A stretch of DNA of 64,000 bases from Escherichia coli (lineage in GTDB: Bacteria > Pseudomonadota > Gammaproteobacteria > Enterobacterales > Enterobacteriaceae), in NCBI RefSeq assembly GCF_050920415.1, contig NZ_CP169309.1. One strand, given 5' to 3'. The translations under genes were made by a program, and so were the position numbers. The notes under the pieces were generated by a model. That model saw nothing but the letters and a program-made list of their open reading frames with translations, was not told the origin of the DNA and searched no databases. Every line of letters begins with the position of its first letter. Position 1 is the first letter of the stretch. This document shows, one piece after another, positions 2,330 to 57,513 of the stretch.

Positions 2330-3999
2330 TTACGTTTTGTATGTTGATAGCAAAGTATCTCTGTCTGCTGAAGCCCTTTTGGCTGCGTAAGAATAATAAA
2401 ACTTCAGTGTTGTTAATCATTATTATCCTCGCCATGATCCTTGGCGTGGTTAAAATTCAGGTCTGGTTAAACGACTGGAACAATGATTTTTTCAATGCGC
2501 TAAGTCAGAAAGAAACCGATAAACTTTGGCAACTTGTTCTGTGGTTCCCTGCCCTGCTGGGGATCTTTGTATTAATATCCGTAAACAAAACATGGCTAAT
2601 TAAACTACTGACTATTCGCTGGCGCGAATGGTTAACAGATTACTACCTTAATCGCTGGTTTGCAGATAAAAACTACTACTTCACGCAGATCTACGGCGAG
2701 CATAAAAATACAGATAACCCTGACCAACGTATCGCTGAAGACATTCTCTTACTGATCAGCAAAACGCTCAGCCTTTCATTTGGCTTCATCCAGTCACTGA
2801 GCATGCTGGTCACCTTCACCGTTATTCTTTGGCAAAGCGCGGGTACGCTCTCATTCACTGTTAGTGGAACAGAATGGAATATCCATGGGTATATGGTCTA
2901 TACCGTCGCGCTTATTGTGATCGGTGGAACATTATTTACCCATAAGGTTGGAAAACGCATTCGACCACTTAATGTGGAAAAGCAACGTAGCGAAGCGACA
3001 TTTCGAACTAATCTTGTGCAGCATAATAAACAAGCGGAACTGATTGCGCTAAGCAATGCTGAATCTCTACAACGGCAGGAGTTGAGCGACAATTTTCATA
3101 TCATTAAAGAGAACTGGCATCGTTTAATGAATCGCCAGCGGTGGCTTGATTACTGGCAGAATATTTATTCGCGCTCGCTTAGCGTTCTTCCCTACTTTCT
3201 GTTATTGCCGCAGTTTATTAGCGGACAGATCAATCTGGGCGGACTGATGAAATCACGCCAGGCATTTATGCTGGTATCGAACAATTTAAGCTGGTTTATT
3301 TATAAATATGATGAACTTGCTGAACTGGCTGCGGTTATCGATCGCTTGTATGAGTTCCATCAACTCACCGAACAGCGCCCTACGAATAAGCCTAAAAATT
3401 GCCAACATGCGGTACAAGTGGCTGACGCGAGTATTCGTACTCCTGATAATAAGATCATATTAGAGAACCTGAACTTTCATGTTTCGCCAGGCAAATGGCT
3501 ATTGCTGAAAGGTTACTCTGGTGCGGGAAAAACCACACTGCTTAAAACATTATCCCACTGCTGGCCGTGGTTTAAAGGTGATATTTCTTCTCCTGCTGAC
3601 AGTTGGTATGTGTCACAAACACCGTTAATCAAAACCGGCTTACTGAAAGAGATTATTTGTAAAGCACTTCCCCTGTCCGTAGACGATAAATCGTTGAGCG
3701 AAGTACTGCATCAGGTTGGTCTGGGGAAATTGGCTGCGCGTATTCATGATCACGATCGCTGGGGAGATATTCTTTCCAGCGGCGAAAAACAACGTATCGC
3801 CCTGGCTCGATTAATTTTACGACGTCCGAAATGGATATTTCTTGACGAAACTACCTCTCATCTTGAGGAACAAGAGGCTATCCGCTTACTGCGTTTAGTG
3901 CGTGAAAAACTACCCTCAAGCGGCGTCATTATGGTCACACATCAACCTGGTGTCTGGAGCCTGGCTGATGATATTTGCGACATTAGCGCGGTTTTATAA
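2314..3999 (+). CDS. yddA: ABC transporter (fused permease/ATPase, SbmA/BacA-like membrane domain)
   Basis: 561-aa ORF with Walker A (GYSGAGKTT), ABC signature (LSSGEKQR) and Walker B (IFLDETTS); start could alternatively be ATG 2341. Confidence 0.9.
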   Translation: MITIPITFCMLIAKYLCLLKPFWLRKNNKTSVLLIIIILAMILGVVKIQVWLNDWNNDFFNALSQKETDKLWQLVLWFPALLGIFVLISVNKTWLIKLLTIRWREWLTDYYLNRWFADKNYYFTQIYGEHKNTDNPDQRIAEDILLLISKTLSLSFGFIQSLSMLVTFTVILWQSAGTLSFTVSGTEWNIHGYMVYTVALIVIGGTLFTHKVGKRIRPLNVEKQRSEATFRTNLVQHNKQAELIALSNAESLQRQELSDNFHIIKENWHRLMNRQRWLDYWQNIYSRSLSVLPYFLLLPQFISGQINLGGLMKSRQAFMLVSNNLSWFIYKYDELAELAAVIDRLYEFHQLTEQRPTNKPKNCQHAVQVADASIRTPDNKIILENLNFHVSPGKWLLLKGYSGAGKTTLLKTLSHCWPWFKGDISSPADSWYVSQTPLIKTGLLKEIICKALPLSVDDKSLSEVLHQVGLGKLAARIHDHDRWGDILSSGEKQRIALARLILRRPKWIFLDETTSHLEEQEAIRLLRLVREKLPSSGVIMVTHQPGVWSLADDICDISAVL

Positions 4000-4036
4000 A
4001 AACAATAAAAGCCCTGCTGTACGGAGATAAAAATAA

Positions 4037-6409
4037 ATGAAGCGAGTTCTTATTCCTGGCGTCATTTTATGTGGCGCTGATGTAGCGCAGGCCGTCGATG
4101 ACAAAAATATGTACATGCATGTTTTTGAAGAGATGACGGTCTATGCTCCTGTCCCTGTACCCGTAAACGGCAACACGCATTACACCAGTGAAAGCATCGA
4201 GCGTTTACCGACCGGGAATGGCAATATCAGCGATCTGCTGAGAACCAACCCTGCGGTACGCATGGATTCAACGCAAAGTACCTCATTGAACCAGGGAGAT
4301 ATTCGCCCGGAGAAAATCTCTATTCACGGTGCGTCGCCCTACCAGAATGCCTATTTGATTGACGGTATTAGTGCAACGAATAACCTGAACCCAGCGAATG
4401 AGTCCGATGCCAGTAGTGCAACCAATATTAGCGGGATGTCACAGGGGTATTATCTTGATGTCAGCTTACTGGACAATGTGACGCTTTATGACAGTTTTGT
4501 GCCGGTTGAATTTGGCCGCTTCAATGGCGGGGTAATTGATGCAAAGATCAAACGCTTCAACGCTGATGATAGCAGCGTGAAACTGGGTTATCGCACTACG
4601 CGTTCGGACTGGTTAACATCGCATATCGATGAGAATAACAAGAGCGCATTTAATCAAGGTTCTTCAGGAAGTACTTATTACTCTCCAGATTTTAAAAAGA
4701 ACTTTTATACCTTGTCGTTTAATCAGGAACTCGCTGATAACTTTGGCGTTACCGCCGGTTTATCGCGCCGCCAGTCTGATATCATCCGCGCGGATTATGT
4801 TTCGAATGACGGCATTGTCGCCGGCAGGGCACAGTATAAAAACGTTATCGATACTGCATTGAGCAAATTTACCTGGTTTGCCAGCGACCGCTTTACCCAC
4901 GATTTAACCTTAAAATATACCGGCTCCAGCCGTGATTATAATACCAGCACCTTCCCGGAGTCTGATCGCGAAATGGGTAATAAATCCTATGGTCTGGCAT
5001 GGGATATGGATACCCAGCTCGCATGGGCCAAACTGCGTACCACCGTTGGTTGGGATCATATTAGTGATTATACCCGTCACGATCATGACATCTGGTACAC
5101 CGAACTTTCATGTACATATGGTGATATTTCAGGGCGTTGCACTCGTGGCGGATTAGGACACATTTCCCAGGCTGTAGATAATTACACCTTCAAAACACGC
5201 CTTGACTGGCAAAAATTCGCCGTGGGTAATGTTTCGCATCAACCCTACTTCGGCGCGGAATACATCTATTCCGATGCATGGACTGAACGCCATAACCAGT
5301 CTGAATCCTATGTGATTAATGCTGCCGGAAAGAAAACTAACCATACCATTTACCATAAAGGTAAAGGCAGCCTGGGAATAGACAATTACACGCTGTATAT
5401 GGCGGATCGCATTAACTGGCGTAATGTGTCGTTAATGCCCGGCGTGCGGTATGACTATGATAACTATCTGTCAAACCACAATATCTCCCCGCGCTTTATG
5501 ACGGAATGGGATATTTTTGCTGATCAAACCTCAATGATTACCGCAGGTTATAACCGTTACTATGGCGGGAATATTCTTGATATGGGATTACGTGATATCC
5601 GCAATAGCTGGACGGAATCGGTATCAGGCAATAAAACCCTGACGCGTTATCAGGATTTGAAAACGCCTTATAACGATGAACTGGCAATGGGATTGCAGCA
5701 AAAAATCGGTAAGAACGTTATTGCGCGCGCAAACTATGTTTACCGTGAAGCGCATGATCAAATCAGCAAAAGCAGTCGTACCGACAGCGCGACTAAAACC
5801 ACCATTACTGAATATAACAACGACGGTAAAACCAAAACGCATTCGTTCAACCTCAGTTTTGAACTGGCCGAACCCCTGCATATCAGCCAGGTAGATATTA
5901 ACCCGCAAGTTGTCTTTAGCTATATCAAGAGCAAGGGCAACTTATCGTTGAACAATGGTTATGAGGAGAGCAATACCGGTGATAACCAGGTGGTCTATAA
6001 CGGTAATCTGGTTTCTTACGATAGCGTTCCGGTGGCAGATTTTAATAATCCATTAAAGATCTCCTTAAACATGGATTTCACACATCAACCGAGCGGATTG
6101 GTGTGGGCGAATACGCTGGCCTGGCAAGAAGCGCGTAAAGCTCGCATTATCCTCGGTAAAACGAATGCGCAATACATTAGCGAATATTCAGATTACAAAC
6201 AGTATGTTGATGAAAAACTGGATAGCAGCCTGACCTGGGACACCCGCTTGTCCTGGACGCCACAATTTCTGAAACAACAAAACCTGACGATCAGTGCCGA
6301 TATTCTCAATGTACTGGATAGCAAAACCGCTGTTGATACAACGAATACCGGCGTGGCGACCTACGCCAGTGGCCGTACTTTCTGGCTTGATGTCAGCATG
6401 AAATTTTAA
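4037..6409 (+). CDS. yddB: TonB-dependent outer membrane receptor
   Basis: 790-aa ORF, N-terminal signal peptide, C-terminal ...WLDVSMKF beta-barrel terminus; synteny yddA-yddB-pqqL. Confidence 0.9.
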   Translation: MKRVLIPGVILCGADVAQAVDDKNMYMHVFEEMTVYAPVPVPVNGNTHYTSESIERLPTGNGNISDLLRTNPAVRMDSTQSTSLNQGDIRPEKISIHGASPYQNAYLIDGISATNNLNPANESDASSATNISGMSQGYYLDVSLLDNVTLYDSFVPVEFGRFNGGVIDAKIKRFNADDSSVKLGYRTTRSDWLTSHIDENNKSAFNQGSSGSTYYSPDFKKNFYTLSFNQELADNFGVTAGLSRRQSDIIRADYVSNDGIVAGRAQYKNVIDTALSKFTWFASDRFTHDLTLKYTGSSRDYNTSTFPESDREMGNKSYGLAWDMDTQLAWAKLRTTVGWDHISDYTRHDHDIWYTELSCTYGDISGRCTRGGLGHISQAVDNYTFKTRLDWQKFAVGNVSHQPYFGAEYIYSDAWTERHNQSESYVINAAGKKTNHTIYHKGKGSLGIDNYTLYMADRINWRNVSLMPGVRYDYDNYLSNHNISPRFMTEWDIFADQTSMITAGYNRYYGGNILDMGLRDIRNSWTESVSGNKTLTRYQDLKTPYNDELAMGLQQKIGKNVIARANYVYREAHDQISKSSRTDSATKTTITEYNNDGKTKTHSFNLSFELAEPLHISQVDINPQVVFSYIKSKGNLSLNNGYEESNTGDNQVVYNGNLVSYDSVPVADFNNPLKISLNMDFTHQPSGLVWANTLAWQEARKARIILGKTNAQYISEYSDYKQYVDEKLDSSLTWDTRLSWTPQFLKQQNLTISADILNVLDSKTAVDTTNTGVATYASGRTFWLDVSMKF

Positions 6410-49132: not shown

Positions 49133-49978
49133 CTATTTCCCCGCCTCCGGATGCGTATCAAACGCCGCCATCACCAACGCCAGTTCATCCACAGTAAAGC
49201 CATGCTTTGCGTCATCTACGCCCAGACCAAACTGCTCCTGCATCACGGCATATAACGACGCCACATCCGCTAGATTCCGCTGCTCCACTGCATGTCCATT
49301 TTCATAATGGGTGAAATGAAAATTGGTCAGTGTCAGTTTGCCACCGTCCGGCAAATGGCGGCACATCAGCAAATGATGGCGAAAATGCGATTGCGGCCAG
49401 TGCGCCGACCAGAAATTCCCCATCACATAATCACTTTGTTGTTGTTCACAGAGATCAAAACGGTACATCGACTGCCAGTGCTGATGATGATTAAACTGCA
49501 AAATCCAGTCGTTCCCTTCCTGTAACAGCCGATATTCGCCATGTGGCGTTGTTTGCGCGATATCCGCCACTAAACGAATCGGCGCAGTCAAAGTCTGCCC
49601 ACCGAAACCGACATCGGCAATCCAGTGTTCGCCTTCCAGCTCCACCAACAACAAACGATGGGTACGCGGCGGTAATGCTGGCGGATTAGATAACACTACG
49701 CGCCCTAACAGACTGCGTACCTGAAAACCCAGCTCGCGTAACACCCGCTCAAACACGCCATTCTGCTCAAAGCAGTAACCACCACGCCGGGCGAGCACCA
49801 ATTTCTCTTCCAGCGATTGATCATCAAGCTGCATTTCTCTCGGCAGCAAAACATCGAGATTTTCAAATGGAATGGTGCAATTGTGTTTCAGGTGTAATGC
49901 GCGCAGCGTTTCGATATTGACCGCAGCCGCTCCCGACCAGTTAATGCGGGTAAAATAGTGATTCAGAATGGGCGTCAT
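49133..49978 (-). CDS. nhoA: Arylamine N-acetyltransferase / N-hydroxyarylamine O-acetyltransferase
   Basis: 281-aa minus-strand ORF with NAT catalytic Cys context (RRGGYCFEQN). Confidence 0.95.
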   Translation of the reverse strand: MTPILNHYFTRINWSGAAAVNIETLRALHLKHNCTIPFENLDVLLPREMQLDDQSLEEKLVLARRGGYCFEQNGVFERVLRELGFQVRSLLGRVVLSNPPALPPRTHRLLLVELEGEHWIADVGFGGQTLTAPIRLVADIAQTTPHGEYRLLQEGNDWILQFNHHQHWQSMYRFDLCEQQQSDYVMGNFWSAHWPQSHFRHHLLMCRHLPDGGKLTLTNFHFTHYENGHAVEQRNLADVASLYAVMQEQFGLGVDDAKHGFTVDELALVMAAFDTHPEAGK

Positions 49979-50152
49979 CAGGCGTTTCCGTTTGTGGTTT
50001 TCTCAATTTATAACCTGGAATAGACGCCGCACCGGCTATTTTGTGCGATCGCGGACATGCATCACGTTCGCAAATCGCCAATCCCGTTAATTTCGTTACT
50101 TATTGCGTTACGAGCTACGCTTTTAAAACACCCTTCTTAGCGAGGCGATACC

Positions 50153-50722
50153 GTGAGCCGATTCATCCCCGTCGAATTACACCATGCCAGCCGTCTGTTA
50201 AACCACGGCCCCACAGTTTTGATAACAACTTTTGATGAAAAATCACAGCGACGTAATGTGATGGCTGCGGCCTGGTCGATGCCGGTGGAGTTTGAACCGC
50301 CACGTGTGGCGATTGTGGTAGATAAATCGACATGGACCAGGGAGTTGATTGAGCGTAACGGTAAATTTGGCATCGTTATCCCGGGCGTTGCGGCGACTAA
50401 CTGGACGTGGGCGGTGGGAAGTGTGTCGGGTCGTGAAGAAGATAAATTTAATTGCTATGGCATTCCGGTTGTGAAAGGTCCGGTGCTTGGATTGCCGCTG
50501 GTTGAAGAGAAATGTCTGGCATGGATGGAGTGTCGATTGCTACCAGCGACTTCTGCGCAAGAAAAATACGATACGCTATTTGGCGAAGTGGTATCGGCAG
50601 CGGCAGACGCACGAGTATTTGTCGAAGGCCGCTGGCAGTTTGATGATGACAAACTCAATACACTACATCATTTAGGTGCTGGCACGTTTGTTACCAGCGG
50701 CAAGCGAGTTGCCGCTGGTTAA
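50153..50722 (+). CDS. yddH: Flavin reductase-like protein
   Basis: 189-aa ORF, divergent from nhoA. Confidence 0.9.
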   Translation: MSRFIPVELHHASRLLNHGPTVLITTFDEKSQRRNVMAAAWSMPVEFEPPRVAIVVDKSTWTRELIERNGKFGIVIPGVAATNWTWAVGSVSGREEDKFNCYGIPVVKGPVLGLPLVEEKCLAWMECRLLPATSAQEKYDTLFGEVVSAAADARVFVEGRWQFDDDKLNTLHHLGAGTFVTSGKRVAAG

Positions 50723-50760
50723 AGAGAGAGCGTTCAGAATTCTGTGTGACGTTAAAAATT

Positions 50761-51156
50761 CTACAGCGTCATCACATTATTCAGCCGCCCTTCAAAATAA
50801 ATAGCTAACTGTGACAATGTCAAATTCCAGCTCTGAACTGGCATTGTCCATTTTTTCTGCGCATTCATCAGTCCCAGGTAAAGTAGCTTCAACAGGCTGT
50901 TTTCATTCGGGAAGGCACCTTTTGTTTTGGTCAGCTTTCTGAACTGCCGGTGAACTGACTCGATAGCATTGGTCGTGTAAATCACCTTACGGATACCCGC
51001 CGGATAACGGAAGTAATGCGACAGATTTTCCCATTTTCGCCGCCACGACTGAAGCACCACCGGATACTGCTGACCCCATTTCGCCTCCAGCTCGTCCAGC
51101 GCTGTTTCTGCCGCCTCCTTCGATACCGCACGGTACACCGGTTTCAGGTCGGCCAT
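50761..51156 (-). pseudogene. IS256-family (Mutator-like) transposase, C-terminal remnant
   Basis: 131-aa ORF matching only the C-terminal region of IS256-family transposases (...YTTNAIESVHRQFRKLTKTKGAFPNE.SLLKLLYL...); N-terminal two-thirds absent. Confidence 0.7.
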
Positions 51157-51170
51157 GAGCCAGGGAAAGA

Positions 51171-52307
51171 TTACGAAAGCCCGCTCCCCGCAAGGACTGA
51201 CGCCAGATACTTTCTGTCCATGGCTGCTTTTCGCATCTTACGTCTTAACCCTGCCTTGAATACCTTATCATTCGTCAAAATATTAATAGCGATGTGCCGT
51301 ATCCCTGAAAATAATTCTGCTGCATTTCCTCTTCTTATTTTGCAGTCGTCTTCATTCATTACCACGTCCAGACGCCAGTGCAGCTTATTCTCCACGTGCC
51401 AGTGATTTCGGATCGCTGTGGCGAACTTCTCTGCGGTTAAATCAGCAGAACTGATATAATATCTGACCGTCATTTCTGGCTCTTTCTTTTGTTCTGCTAT
51501 TATTGACCGAAAGGAGACTGCCACGCATAATTTCTTCAGACCTTTCCATTCAAACGTGAAATCAATAAGTTCATCAGGGACATCGCAAACAATATGAAGA
51601 CGGATTTCTTCTCTGCCGTGACTCTTTTCACTAATTGCGTAACTGTCATGCTCTGGATTATTTAATTCTTTCAGCGGAAATTTTTCCTCGAAGGCTTTAT
51701 TTAGCCGCCCCTGGTTTCCTTTTACAGCGAATAAATAATCACCTCCCTGTTTTTGTATCTTCTCTGCAATATCTTTCTGGCAACCCATCGCATCAGTTGT
51801 GATGATTTTTCCTTTAATATCCAGCATGTTAAGAAGTTCTGGGATAGCTGTAATCTCATTGGATTTCTCATCCGTCTTGATCTGTCCGATGACCAGACTG
51901 TGCATTGTTGAGAACGCACTAATGACATGAATCGCTCCCCTGCGGCGACTCTTGTCATAAGAGTGCCGGAGCGTTTTTCCATCAATTGCAATGACGTCTT
52001 TATCATCTGAAGAATGACATTCACGCATCCGGTTAATAAAGCATTCGTGAAATTTTGCAGGACTGATACATGATACAACTCTGGCAATAGTATCGTGAAC
52101 AGGAATACCATTTTCAAAATCACCATATTGCTTCAAAAAATCGAGATGAGTTTCCCCGAAATCCTCTATATCTTCCCAGCCTTCTGCACCCGAAATAACG
52201 GCGCAAATAGTCAACAGTAGAATATCCGATAATTTATGCTCCACTTTCCAGGCTTGTCTGTAATCGGGGATAATAGAAATATGTTCCATCAATTTTTTAA
52301 GTTCCAT
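51171..52307 (-). CDS. ydcC: ISAs1-family transposase (Rhs H-repeat-associated protein)
   Basis: 378-aa [40 protein letters not shown]..., the characteristic H-rpt ORF of E. coli Rhs elements. Confidence 0.9.
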
Positions 52308-52439
52308 TTTGTTCTCCTTAATTATGTAAGGAGTATTTGATCATGTATAAGCAATAAAAAACAGCTTCAGGTAATGAGGAATATCTCAATTTTTAAACAT
52401 AAAATGCGAATTGTTTAGTACAAAAAAGCAGCGTTAAGT

Positions 52440-54323
52440 GAGTAGGCCACCGGAACCTCCCCGACAGCCTCTCGCAGAACCGTACGTGAAACTCTCGCTT
52501 CATACGGCTCCCGTCAGGCAAACGCGCTTCCTGGTCCTGCTTTCCAGTGGGCAAACAACTCCGGCTTCTCTTTTGACAGTCTTTCCATTAGCTGACACGC
52601 CTTCGTCTTTCTATACCACAGGGTTTTATATTTCTTTCTCGCCCACGCAATCAGCGTCAGATTAATATATCTGCATACTTTCTTCATCGCTGATTTGTGG
52701 TATCTCGCGTAATAATTCAGCCACCCCGATATTATCAGATTCAGCCACTTCGCAATATCTTCGAGACTCATCTCCACCCTGCGTCTGATCCACAGTTTCC
52801 TGAGTTTTCCAATCATGCCTTTCTGCGCACGGTTACTCGCCGCCGGGCTGAAACTCGTAAAGAGGTTTCCCCGCCGGTGGTTACGTGCTCTTCGCGCTCT
52901 GAACGTATACCCCAGAAAATCAAACTGCACTGTTTCATGGTTCGCCTGTCGTTCGCTGTCTTTGCAGTAAACTATTTTCGTTTTCTCCGGATGTAATTCC
53001 AGTCCACATTCCTGAAAACGTTTTGCCAGCTTATTCAGTAATTCCTCTGCCTGTTGTTTACTGCCACAATGAATTAATCCATCATCTGCATAACGGCACC
53101 AGGGAATTTCCGGATAATGTAACGTCAGCCATTTATCAAACACATAGTGCAGAAATAAATTCGCCAGTACCGGGCTGATGACTCCACCCTGTGGCGTACC
53201 TTTATTTCTTTCCTTCAGTGTTCCATCCGGCATCTGCACCGGCGCTGTCAGCCAGCGGCGAATAGACAGTCTTACCCATTTATCCGCACAATGTTTATCT
53301 ACTGCCCTGAGTAATAAATCGTGGGGGATATTATCGAATAACCCTTTAATATCAAACTCAAGACACCAGTCGTATTGCCAGCAACGTTTTCTGGTGACTG
53401 CTATTGCATCCAGCGCTGATTTTCCATGCCGGTATCCGTATGAATCATTCAGGAAATAACGCTCCACTAATGGTTCAAACGTTACCAGCACCGTCATCTG
53501 CGCTATTCTATCGCTTACTGTCGGTATTCCTAAAAGTCTTTTGCTGCCATCCTTCTTCGGAATTTCCACCGCACGCACTGGCGGCGGCATCCAGCTTCCC
53601 GACGATAACCTGTTCCAGATTTTGTACAGATTTCCTTTCAGATCCCGCTCAAAATCTTTCAGCGTCTGGTTATCCACTCCGGCAGCTCCGGCATTCGCCT
53701 TTATCCGCCGGTACGCTTCCACCACATGCAATTTACTGACCTGAAACGGTTTTGTCTGTTCACACACAGTCTCCTCCTGCCTACAGTTGGGCTGTGATGC
53801 AGACTGCCCGACGCTGTCCCTTCGCTCCACGTTCATTACAAACGCTTCCTCACTACTACGAACAGCTCTGCCCCGGTTTCGCACATCGATACTCTCATAC
53901 TCATAATTTCGGTTATTTGTAATTCTCTCTTGACATTGCGACGACCGGTTCCCGTAGTTCCTGCAAAGAGCCCGATACAGCGTCATGCCTGCTATACACC
54001 GGACATCATTCACGCAGCATTCGGAATTCACCCGTAAATTAATCCCGGCGGTATCACGAAACCTCCGGTTTTGATGTCACTTAGGACTAACGACGTTTCA
54101 ACACAGGTTCGGGTTTACTCATCTCACTGTATCTCACATAGGATCAGATCTCGTCTGATCGTTCCCCCTGCGCTCACTACCATGGCTCTTTACCACAGCA
54201 GCCGGGGTTGTTTGGGACCGACTTCCGACAGCAGATCCCGGTGGGCCTGCCACCATCTCTTCACAAGCTTATGCTTATTACATGCAAAACGTCCCGTTTT
54301 GCATCTTTGTGCCTACGGCACAC
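52440..54323 (-). mobile_element. Group II intron (boundaries approximate)
   Basis: On the minus strand: 5' GUGUG-type start near 54323, internal RT/maturase ORF, and a canonical domain V hairpin GAGCCGTATGAAGCGAGAGTTTCACGTACGGTTC (plus coordinates 52477..52510) followed by a domain VI-like helix. Confidence 0.8.
52514..54031 (-). CDS. Group II intron-encoded reverse transcriptase/maturase
   Basis: 505 aa with RT motifs including YADD (RYADDGLIHC) and a C-terminal maturase (domain X) region; stop codon abuts domain V. Confidence 0.9.
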   Translation of the reverse strand: MNSECCVNDVRCIAGMTLYRALCRNYGNRSSQCQERITNNRNYEYESIDVRNRGRAVRSSEEAFVMNVERRDSVGQSASQPNCRQEETVCEQTKPFQVSKLHVVEAYRRIKANAGAAGVDNQTLKDFERDLKGNLYKIWNRLSSGSWMPPPVRAVEIPKKDGSKRLLGIPTVSDRIAQMTVLVTFEPLVERYFLNDSYGYRHGKSALDAIAVTRKRCWQYDWCLEFDIKGLFDNIPHDLLLRAVDKHCADKWVRLSIRRWLTAPVQMPDGTLKERNKGTPQGGVISPVLANLFLHYVFDKWLTLHYPEIPWCRYADDGLIHCGSKQQAEELLNKLAKRFQECGLELHPEKTKIVYCKDSERQANHETVQFDFLGYTFRARRARNHRRGNLFTSFSPAASNRAQKGMIGKLRKLWIRRRVEMSLEDIAKWLNLIISGWLNYYARYHKSAMKKVCRYINLTLIAWARKKYKTLWYRKTKACQLMERLSKEKPELFAHWKAGPGSAFA

Positions 54324-54398
54324 CGTGATCTTTCCCTGGGAATAAAAGAAAGTTCACTGTAGTTATTAATGATATTTACTTCTTCATTCATATTTTAC

Positions 54399-54788
54399 CT
54401 ATTTAGAAAAACATATGCTCGCTTCCTCCGTGATAGAGATAACATAATCAGGTATTATTTCAAATACAGGAGTAATTAAGTATGGTCTGGAGTAACCATT
54501 ATTAAAATCCACACTATCAACTAAAAAACTAATAATGCTATCTTTGTCAGAAACAATCAATGATTCTCGGTAATAAGTTTTTTTACCTTTATTTCTCACA
54601 ATATTCAGTGCAATGTAGAATCTATCGTCTATCATAATGTCAGAAAGATTTTTAACATGATCTACCCAAGTGATGCTTCGACATTGCTCTTTTTTATTGA
54701 GCATTGCAAAAAAAATATCTTCTTTCACTTTCTCACTTGGTAACTGACTTAAAGGTTTTATACCTGTAAATATAAATTTAGTTTTCAT
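54399..54788 (-). CDS. Hypothetical protein (AT-rich accessory ORF D)
   Basis: 129-aa ORF, no recognisable family from sequence alone; 72 bp upstream of the intron 5' end. Confidence 0.5.
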   Translation of the reverse strand: MKTKFIFTGIKPLSQLPSEKVKEDIFFAMLNKKEQCRSITWVDHVKNLSDIMIDDRFYIALNIVRNKGKKTYYRESLIVSDKDSIISFLVDSVDFNNGYSRPYLITPVFEIIPDYVISITEEASICFSK

Positions 54789-54818
54789 ATTGGCTAATTC
54801 GTTTGAAGAGTTGCTACT

Positions 54819-55241
54819 TTATTCAATCCAGTAAGCTAGTCGCTCTCCAGAACTTAGATTTTCCCTTTTGTAATAAAATACCGTATCGAAATTAAGTGAA
54901 ATGTTTGCCGCTATAACTTTAAACTGTAATATTGACTCGGAATAAAACTCGAGAATAATATTAGCATCATTATCATCGTTAATTATTTTTAGTTTCATAA
55001 AATCATCAAGAGGATCACAAGTCCAGTGCGTATCACCACTCATGTAAGATGGTGCATTTATTATTATTTCAAAATTATGATAGTACGAAAGATCACTACT
55101 GCCAACGATAATTAATCGCCCATTACTATAGAGATAAATTTCAAAATCTATCCAACAGTTATTTCTGTAATTACGCCTAATTTCGTCCACTACATTTTGT
55201 TGTTTCATTTTGGATTCTTGTAAAAGATAATTACTACGCAT
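54819..55241 (-). CDS. Hypothetical protein (accessory ORF C)
   Basis: 140-aa acidic ORF, low GC, no TM segments. Confidence 0.5.
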   Translation of the reverse strand: MRSNYLLQESKMKQQNVVDEIRRNYRNNCWIDFEIYLYSNGRLIIVGSSDLSYYHNFEIIINAPSYMSGDTHWTCDPLDDFMKLKIINDDNDANIILEFYSESILQFKVIAANISLNFDTVFYYKRENLSSGERLAYWIE

Positions 55242-55285
55242 TGACTAAGTGAAATATTATCTTCTATAGATCGTATCTGTAAAAT

Positions 55286-55618
55286 TTAAAATGTGTTAAC
55301 TTCACTTCTTAATAATACAAATTCCTCCAGGCTTAATATTTTATTTTTTAATTCATCATGCCTGATCGTATCATTGATATAGAGAAGATAAGTATACTCA
55401 GGATAATCGACCTCATCCACTACGCCATCCAAAACATCATAATTTTCTTTTAGAAGAAAATGTTCATGTCTTTTGTCTCCGGGCAATAAATAGATTCCGC
55501 CATAATAAAGGCTTTCTTTCTCTTTAAATGTGATTTTTATCAGATCTTCTAACATCTTCTGCGCATCATATATTTCCACCCCATAATATCCATACAAGTC
55601 ATAATAACCCATTCCCAT
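55286..55618 (-). CDS. Hypothetical protein (accessory ORF B)
   Basis: 110-aa ORF with ATG start preceded by AGGTGA RBS. Confidence 0.55.
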   Translation of the reverse strand: MGMGYYDLYGYYGVEIYDAQKMLEDLIKITFKEKESLYYGGIYLLPGDKRHEHFLLKENYDVLDGVVDEVDYPEYTYLLYINDTIRHDELKNKILSLEEFVLLRSEVNTF

Positions 55619-55639
55619 TTCACCTGTTTGAATTTGTAT

Positions 55640-55840
55640 TCATTCACCCTCACGGGATTTACCAATTACATTCAGCAGTGGCATTAAATGTAATGTTACA
55701 AAACTATCACATCTTTCCTGAATTATCATTTGGATATAATGTTTTGTGTCATTGCTACCATATTCAGCCATATAGAATATTACTGCGTCCATTATATCTC
55801 TTTCATAGTTTTCTAATGCATCAACAAATACATCAACCAA
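55640..55840 (-). CDS. Hypothetical small ORF (accessory ORF A), possibly a remnant
   Basis: 66-aa frame with only a TTG start and no clear RBS; the frame is closed by stops just upstream; in the same frame as ORF B, separated by one TGA. Confidence 0.3.
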   Translation of the reverse strand: MVDVFVDALENYERDIMDAVIFYMAEYGSNDTKHYIQMIIQERCDSFVTLHLMPLLNVIGKSREGE

Positions 55841-56050
55841 AGTATTAACGTCTTTACTTGATGGATGCTCTGAAAGATTATTTTCATTTGTGAGAATCTG
55901 AATCGTACCATTACGATTCTCTTAGAAATATCATTAAATACGCTACCGCCCTACCCTGATAGACTGGCCCCCTGAATCTCCAGACAACCAGTATCACTTA
56001 AATAAGTGATAGTCTTAATACTAGTTTTTAGACTAGTCATTGGAGAACAG

Positions 56051-56416
56051 ATGATTGATGTCTTAGGGCCGGAGAAACGCAGACGGCGTACCACACAGGA
56101 AAAGATCGCAATTGTTCAGCAGAGCTTTGAACCGGGGATGACGGTCTCCCTCGTTGCCCGGCAACATGGTGTAGCAGCCAGCCAGTTATTTCTCTGGCGT
56201 AAGCAATACCAGGAAGGAAGTCTTACTGCTGTCGCCGCCGGAGAACAGGTTGTTCCTGCCTCTGAACTTGCTGCCGCCATGAAGCAGATTAAAGAACTCC
56301 AGCGCCTGCTCGGCAAGAAAACGATGGAAAATGAACTCCTCAAAGAAGCCGTTGAATATGGACGGGCAAAAAAGTGGATAGCGCACGCGCCCTTATTGCC
56401 CGGGGATGGGGAGTAA
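56051..56416 (+). CDS. insC: IS2 transposase OrfA
   Basis: 121-aa product [47 protein letters not shown]... Confidence 0.95.
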
Positions 56417-57279
56417 GCTTAGTCAGCCGTTGTCTCCGGGTGTCGCGTGCGCAGTTGCACGTCATTCTCAGACGAACCGATGACTGGATGGATGGCCGCC
56501 GCAGTCGTCACACTGATGATACGGATGTGCTTCTCCGTATACACCATGTTATCGGAGAGCTGCCCACGTATGGTTATCGTCGGGTATGGGCGCTGCTTCG
56601 CAGACAGGCAGAACTTGATGGTATGCCTGCGATCAATGCCAAACGTGTTTACCGGATCATGCGCCAGAATGCGCTGTTGCTTGAGCGAAAACCTGCTGTA
56701 CCGCCATCGAAACGGGCACATACAGGCAGAGTGGCCGTGAAAGAAAGCAATCAGCGATGGTGCTCTGACGGGTTCGAGTTCTGCTGTGATAACGGAGAGA
56801 GACTGCGTGTCACGTTCGCGCTGGACTGCTGTGATCGTGAGGCACTGCACTGGGCGGTGACTACTGGCGGCTTCAACAGTGAAACAGTACAGGACGTCAT
56901 GCTGGGAGCGGTGGAACGCCGCTTCGGCAACGATCTTCCGTCGTCTCCAGTGGAGTGGCTGACGGATAATGGTTCATGCTACCGGGCTAATGAAACACGC
57001 CAGTTCGCCCGGATGTTGGGACTTGAACCGAAGAACACGGCGGTGCGGAGTCCGGAGAGTAACGGAATAGCAGAGAGCTTCGTGAAAACGATAAAGCGTG
57101 ACTACATCAGTATCATGCCCAAACCAGACGGGTTAACGGCAGCAAAGAACCTTGCAGAGGCGTTCGAGCATTATAACGAATGGCATCCGCATAGTGCGCT
57201 GGGTTATCGCTCGCCACGGGAATATCTGCGGCAGCGGGCTTGTAATGGGTTAAGTGATAACAGATGTCTGGAAATATAG
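56374..57279 (+). CDS. insD: IS2 transposase OrfB (DDE integrase domain)
   Basis: 301-aa ORF overlapping insC in the -1 frame, typical IS3-family arrangement. Confidence 0.95.
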
Positions 57280-57513
57280 GGGCAAATCCACCTGATAACA
57301 TGATCTGCACTGCGTTATCATATCGACATGTTTCTCTATATGCGAAGAGATGTTTTATTTTCGGATTAAATTAAATTGATATTCAATATAAAATACAGAA
57401 TCACATCAGCGACATAAATAGTTGTAACAACTTCAATTACCATTCATAGCAAACAAATAGACGTCCAGTTAACTTTGCCGATGATTTATTAACATTAATC
57501 TCCGGCATTGTTG

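Follow-up and report, generated by a model that had tools for sequence, protein, structure and literature searches.

A 3'-terminal IS256-family remnant flush with an ISEc1 (H-repeat) terminus beside yddH in Escherichia coli

How did part of an IS256-family transposase gene come to lie between ydcC, the transposase gene of an H-repeat element, and yddH, and does the part that is left still act? We addressed these questions in a 64,000-nucleotide stretch of Escherichia coli DNA (contig NZ_CP169309.1; referred to here as the window, with positions counted from its first base). The remnant and its parts are as follows.

50726..51160, minus strand: remnant (435 bp) of an IS256-family element of ~1.29 kb, comprising its 3'-terminal third (50725/6-51158 covered in megablast against IS256-family copies; aligned with Salmonella and plasmid copies)
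50761..51156, minus strand: open frame of 131 codons (stop included), corresponding to transposase residues 270-400 (Pfam, NCBIfam, and tblastn)
50726..50749, minus strand: right terminal inverted repeat of the IS256 element, (GA)GAGCGTTCAGAATTCTGTGTGA (four-copy comparison; match of the left and right inverted repeats in a full-length copy)

Homology to IS256-family elements at the DNA level was slightly wider than the open frame, extending from 50726 to 51158-51160. The 131-aa ORF matched Pfam Transposase_mut (PF00872) at positions 276-377 of 379 (E 5.5e-25; 88.5 bits) and NCBIfam transpos_IS256 (NF033543) at positions 235-337 of 338 (E 5.3e-32; 111 bits, which falls below the full-protein cutoff of 150 bits), that is, at C-terminal model positions only. 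This match to IS256 transposases is far beyond chance, and the first-pass annotation, which had recognized the C-terminal third of such a protein, was right in this respect (residues 270-400 of 400). When the whole window was searched by tblastn, residues 269-400 of a full-length 400-aa relative aligned to 51159-50764 with 94.7% identity; no other significant match was present in the 64 kb (best other, 30% over 40 aa; E 0.17), and hence no second IS256 piece was detected. A peptide of the EAST1 toxin, whose gene is carried by IS1414-type elements, matched neither the fragment nor any of four relatives significantly, and this assignment was rejected.

The full-length relative carries the motifs WLDAIH, CVDGL, and NAIES at residues 160, 226, and 332, which, from general knowledge of the family, we take to contain the D, D, and E of the catalytic triad. 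The remnant begins at residue 269/270 and keeps NAIES only; the WLD and VDG motifs (residues 160-230) are missing, and the DDE triad is incomplete. Members of the IS256 family are bounded by two terminal inverted repeats, are about 1.2-1.5 kb long, and produce a target-site duplication of 8-9 bp. Here, 435 bp of about 1,291 bp are left with the right inverted repeat only, and the loss of the left end leaves a single flank. Because the left inverted repeat and two of the three catalytic motifs are gone, the remnant cannot transpose, being neither autonomous nor mobilisable.

The position of the surviving terminus was set by comparing four copies with unrelated flanks (those of the window, strain C11, CFT073, and a Salmonella plasmid), and the left and right ends of a complete IS256 copy were also matched, giving the inverted repeat (GA)GAGCGTTCAGAATTCTGTGT.... 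In the window, this repeat starts at 50726, 3 bp past the yddH stop codon. Since the joint coincides with the IS256 terminus, the yddH side of the remnant is a genuine IS256 transposition joint.

The other side of the remnant adjoins ISEc1, which is itself interrupted by an intron. The features on this side are the following.

51161..52436, minus strand: ISEc1 (H-repeat, ISAs1 family) nt 16-1291, with a complete right inverted repeat (NCBIfam; inverted repeats from the K-12, S10EC, and EC42405 copies)
51171-52307, minus strand: ydcC, 378 aa, ISAs1-family transposase, within ISEc1
52437..54323, minus strand: group II intron, 1,887 nt, 5' GTGTG ... CACT 3' (Rfam, Pfam, and TIGR04416; intron-less S10EC allele)
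52514-53836, minus strand: intron RT/maturase ORF (Pfam RVT_1 and GIIM; TIGR04416 E 2.6e-127)
54324..54338, minus strand: ISEc1 nt 1-15, the outer left inverted repeat CAGGGAAAGATCACG (inverted-repeat comparison)
54339..55950, minus strand: left flank of ISEc1 with four small ORFs, 30.7% G+C, without Pfam match, not IS256, and without a direct repeat matching the right flank

The ydcC product is an ISAs1-type DDE transposase (NCBIfam transpos_ISAs1, NF033564; E 5.3e-123; 410 bits, cutoff 70) and also matched Pfam DDE_Tnp_1_assoc and DDE_Tnp_1. Homology to the H-repeat element of K-12 covered 51160-52426 of the window (97%). In the K-12, EC42405, and S10EC copies, the 1,291-bp element has the termini CAGGG(A/C)AAGAT... 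at both ends; in the window, CAGGGAAAGAT occurs at 51161 (plus strand) and 54338 (minus strand), with a chance expectation of 0.04. Without the intron, the ISEc1 of the window is likewise 1,291 bp long and aligns without gaps to the K-12 (96.4%) and S10EC (97.1%) copies. The small ORFs of the left flank (129, 140, 110, and 66 aa; 54399-55840, minus strand) lie between yncG and ISEc1, and by their position at the tail of an Rhs/T6SS island, they could conceivably be orphan immunity genes.

The two elements meet at ...ATCTTTCCCTG joined to GCTCATGGCCGAC, where the IS256 alignment reaches to 0-2 nt from the right terminus of ISEc1. Read on the transposase strand, the bases past this terminus are GCTCATGGCCGAC, whose aligned counterpart in the full-length IS256 relative is GTTCATGGCTGAC. 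The break in IS256 lies at codon 269/270 and is flush with the outermost base of an intact right inverted repeat (IRR). The ydcC stop codon is at 51171-51173 and the ATG of the remnant is at 51154-51156, with a gap of 14 nt, in agreement with the earlier estimate that the remnant ends within 15 bp of the ISAs1 stop codon. The first-pass annotation had also proposed that the ISAs1 terminal repeats be located to define the junction; this placed the right terminus at 51161, with IS256 sequence from the next base (within 2 nt). Because the IRR is complete to its last base with IS256 adjoining it, the break was made by the ISEc1 end and not by a random deletion. No ISEc1 target-site duplication was found, as the flanks CTTTTATTCC (left) and GCTCATGGCC (right) are unrelated; such duplications are likewise missing at the K-12, S10EC, and EC42405 copies. 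The remnant is very probably a nonfunctional 3'-terminal IS256 scar, left by a break at an ISEc1 end together with a second loss or by a one-step adjacent deletion, that persists as a neutral marker.

The intron is a bacterial group II intron inserted between nt 15 and 16 of ISEc1, i.e., 15 nt inside its left end. Its ribozyme domains were detected with Rfam RF00029 at 52437-52512 (62.8 bits) and RF01999 at 54137-54254 (93.1 bits), which between them cover D1-D4 and D5-D6, and it encodes an RT/maturase. Its exact boundaries are given by the intron-less allele CAGGGAAAGATCACG joined to TAACGCTGC in S10EC, against which the insertion is clean. The 3' junction between intron and ISEc1 was present in 84 of 5,426 complete E. 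coli genomes, which makes this position in ISEc1 look like one of recurrent homing. Two intron copies lie close together in some strains with the IS256 remnant (L008 and L013). At one locus (L012; GCA_002965595.1, PTRN01000031.1, 3172-5996), a second complete ISEc1 left end, CAGGGAAAGATCACGTAACGCTGT..., directly adjoins the intron RT ORF at its middle, following ...QKGMIG, and a first 15-nt ISEc1 end with the 5' part of the intron lies upstream of it, in a nested or rearranged arrangement. Within the literature searched, nothing relevant was found on a group II intron in H-rpt or on ISEc1/ISAs1/H-repeat.

The junction between ISEc1 and the remnant was found in 2 of 5,426 complete E. coli genomes (MFDS1022581 and N96), both 100% identical over the 701-bp query. 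The exact 131-aa product was encoded on at least 24 public contigs, and at each of the eight loci inspected among these, the order was ISEc1, fragment, yddH, and nhoA. At every locus examined, the right junction string was identical. The left flank of ISEc1 varies by lineage but is always flush with the left inverted repeat (IRL): the window has the orphan ORFs there, N96 and L009 have a VgrG/M35-effector module, and L012 has something different.

The setting of the remnant is the narZYWV-yddE-nhoA-yddH region of E. coli, in reversed orientation relative to K-12 (ORFs, RefSeq annotation, and the K-12 map). Two features lie directly beyond the IS256 terminus.

50153..50722, plus strand: yddH, flavin reductase family (Pfam Flavin_Reduct E 3.8e-22; blastn to K-12; allele counts)
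50723..50725, no strand assigned: three native bases, AGA, from the yddH stop codon to the IS256 terminus, where homology to EC42405 ends

EC42405, the closest relative by yddH allele, still shares 50723-50725 with the window. Divergence begins within three bases of the yddH stop codon in all of the strains compared, namely, K-12, EC42405, Z0117EC0005, and that of the window, and in other strains, the same region contains VgrG, Rhs, and orphan toxin-immunity modules. The IS256 remnant is therefore located at the distal, yddH-side edge of a hypervariable Rhs/T6SS island. An IS2 copy is present within the window at ~55957-57290 (plus strand; InsC-like 136-aa and InsD-like 301-aa ORFs), ~4.8 kb from the remnant. 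Its size, about 1,331 bp plus a 5-bp duplication, follows from a 7-nt overlap of alignment blocks, and it is missing in the otherwise 99.9-100% identical MFDS1022581; the DNA of the window thus stems from a third strain, close to the two carriers.

The yddH allele of the window is rare. It is 91% identical to that of K-12, and the segment comprising the 5' end of nhoA and yddH (49900-50725) belongs to a divergent allele with at least 99% identity only in the two junction-carrying genomes and 90-95% identity in 5,372 records. On the ansP-yncE side, identity to K-12 is likewise low (89%). The island border as a whole may be an import by recombination or an old allele class. These observations bear on the possibility that the joint between ISEc1 and the truncated IS256 was formed elsewhere (a plasmid or another Escherichia lineage, for instance) and was imported together with the divergent yddH by homologous recombination. 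The rarity of the yddH/nhoA allele and the divergence of the flanks directly past the yddH stop codon in all strains compared are consistent with such an import. However, it would alter the place of the event and not its nature, and the native bases after yddH that adjoin the IS256 terminus are common to EC42405, so that IS256 must have inserted at this chromosomal site in some ancestor. We regard an import of the finished joint as unlikely.

A second possibility is an illegitimate, IS-independent deletion that fused an internal point of IS256 to the neighborhood of ISEc1. The missing target-site duplication would fit, as would the variable nature of the island, which is prone to deletions. 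Yet the breakpoint equals the ISEc1 terminus to the base, for which the random chance is roughly one in a thousand, and the flush-terminus pattern was seen again at other ISEc1 copies. A deletion fusing the two elements had been one of the two origins suggested at first; a random deletion would not be expected to stop exactly at an IS terminus, and this version is very unlikely.

A different reading concerns activity. The 131-aa C-terminal peptide may have been retained and expressed, through ydcC read-through or from its own ATG, for example, as a truncated transposase that hinders related IS256 elements. The frame is intact and on the same strand as ydcC, its ATG lies 14 nt past the ydcC stop codon (4 nt from the ISEc1 junction), and the identical protein recurs among the contigs described above; to judge from the sequence, expression of the frame is conceivable. 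A scan of 50600-51400 for promoters and terminators detected no terminator-like site, including between ydcC and the remnant, and one promoter-like site, which is no more than shuffled sequences give. This sigma-70-like site (TTGACA-18-TATTTT; 10/12; 50794-50823, minus strand) lies inside the remnant, points out through its right end, is antisense to yddH, and is probably meaningless (0.9 sites expected from shuffles). By analogy with the truncated-transposase inhibitors known for other elements, cotranscription with ydcC might yield a C-terminal IS256 domain that keeps the third motif and binds or poisons IS256 transposases in trans; the prospect of this is exceedingly faint. Against an expressed peptide, no recognizable Shine-Dalgarno sequence was found upstream of the ATG, M270 is the first ATG left after the upstream damage, no known inhibitor family matches, and the carriers are identical through recent shared ancestry, which is no test of selection. 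We consider a retained, expressed peptide extremely unlikely, and no sign was found that the remnant does anything. A length of exactly 131 aa recurs among database homologues. A natural two-ORF or frameshift design was rejected on the evidence of a single copy, 95% identical and located on a plasmid, in which an 11-bp upstream deletion makes M270 the first start.

A simple ISEc1 insertion with both IS256 halves and the target-site duplication still present is consistent with the junction being flush at the IRR but is vanishingly improbable, as the 30.7%-GC orphan ORFs beyond the IRL are not IS256, the full-length transposase search revealed no second significant match in the 64 kb (refuting it for the window), and a direct repeat between the flanks is missing. 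Of the original suggestion that the H-repeat element inserted into an IS256 copy, the part that stands is ISEc1 as the truncating agent, on the basis of the flush IRR; insertion without further loss does not stand.

We thus return to the scar left at an ISEc1 end. An IS256-family element once lay beside yddH, its right end 3 bp past the stop codon, and an ISEc1 end, acted on by its transposase, broke it inside the transposase gene. With the other two thirds of IS256 missing both from the far side of ISEc1 and from all 64 kb, and with no target duplication present, the break must have been accompanied by a second loss or have arisen in one step by an ISEc1-promoted adjacent deletion. By one route, ISEc1 may have transposed into IS256, with the upstream two thirds lost later via another, directly repeated ISEc1 (by recombination or deletion). 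By the other, a nearby resident ISEc1 may have attacked IS256 intramolecularly, producing a one-step deletion between its right end and the target. Either route would remove the two aspartate-bearing motifs and the left inverted repeat, and what is left would then persist as a neutral marker confined to a single lineage of E. coli. Both routes are compatible with the junction, and we infer no more than that one of them was taken. The transposition chemistry of the ISAs1 family is poorly characterized, and we speak of an "IS-promoted adjacent deletion" by analogy with other IS families.

Other ISEc1 copies support this class of event, namely, those of S10EC (described below), EC42405, 2020CK-00188, and 2017-02-2CC. 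By annotation coordinates, the last base of an IS1-fragment pseudogene in EC42405 and 2020CK-00188 directly precedes the matched left end of ISEc1. Beside its yddH gene (a 98% allele), strain 2017-02-2CC has two ISEc1 copies in direct orientation, of which one contains the intron, and such a pair is a substrate for recombination. The Rhs loci of EC42405 and 2020CK-00188 are near metJ (L119/L120), and the IS1 pseudogene there (~3803-4122) lacks both its N and C termini.

The reciprocal junction, in which the 5' part of IS256 would meet the ISEc1 IRL, was searched for with a chimeric query and was present in 0 of 5,426 E. coli genomes at at least 80% coverage; two matches reaching 8 nt into the IS256 part adjoin IS1-fragment pseudogenes (annotation coordinates). 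A metagenome scan with the pattern TCATGG-N0-6-CAGGGAAAGATCA, which assumes a target-site duplication and an IRL variant and is thus of limited sensitivity, returned 97 matches, none with an IS256 homologue. The complete genomes and the metagenome scan thus gave no trace of the insertion step. An intact IS256 copy adjoining yddH was found in no genome. Single nucleotide differences between the ISEc1 of the window and four other copies formed no block pattern that would prove recombination.

The remnant is ordinary mobile-element debris that RefSeq already annotates as a pseudogene; few sequenced E. coli genomes carry it, and it is of little importance beyond bookkeeping. It offers a base-resolved example of nested decay, in which IS256 is cut by ISEc1 and ISEc1 is invaded by a group II intron, with IS2 nearby. 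The junction ATCTTTCCCTG joined to GCTCATGGCC is a convenient marker of a rare E. coli lineage (2/5,426 complete genomes). The locus also adds one more case of an ISEc1/H-repeat terminus set against a truncated gene without target duplication, and the recurrence of such termini hints that ISEc1/H-repeat elements reshape the island, whether through adjacent deletion or through recombination of one copy with another.

Compared with known systems, the closest counterparts are the two carrier genomes, in which PGAP annotates the pseudogenes ACE00D_RS13165 (MFDS1022581, NZ_CP169399.1) and AC2A8Y_RS12405 (N96, NZ_CM169999.1) as "IS256 family transposase; incomplete; missing N-terminus," with the same neighbors (yddH, ydcC, and ltrA) as in the window. 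MFDS1022581 differs in lacking the IS2 that the window carries, and N96 differs in its left flank beyond ISEc1. The first-pass annotation had held that an annotated pseudogene at this site in reference genomes would make the fragment ordinary; such an annotation exists in these two complete genomes, whereas K-12 and 5,424 of the 5,426 genomes lack the fragment itself.

The IS256 element of the Salmonella enterica Weltevreden IncFII plasmid NZ_LN890519.1 (WP_000081842.1, 400 aa) is 88-89% identical to the remnant in nucleotide sequence and 94.7% identical in amino acid sequence, and it has the same right inverted repeat. It is complete (about 1.29 kb, with both inverted repeats and one 400-aa ORF), whereas the window keeps the last 435 bp only.

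K-12 MG1655 has the order ydcC (H-repeat), pptA, and yddH, with the same ISEc1-type element (1,291 bp; 96.4%) on the same side of yddH. In place of the 437 bp with the IS256 remnant (50723-51159), K-12 has 318 bp that include pptA, in line with the first-pass annotation, in which no IS256 remnant was known next to yddH in K-12; the K-12 ISEc1 is intron-less and differs from that of the window in sequence at nt 14-25. A pptA gene adjoining yddH is the majority state (4,064 of 5,426 genomes), and there is none in the window. In E. coli S10EC (NZ_CP076697.1; L021, 1774-3125), the only gene annotated upstream of ISEc1 is ansP, with no yncG annotated between them. As in the window, an intact ISEc1 right end in S10EC is flush with an internally truncated gene just downstream of yddH, without a target-site duplication; in contrast to the window, the truncated partner is pptA (last ~20 codons left) and not IS256, and the ISEc1 is intron-less. 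S10EC is thus an independent case of truncation at an ISEc1 terminus at the same locus.
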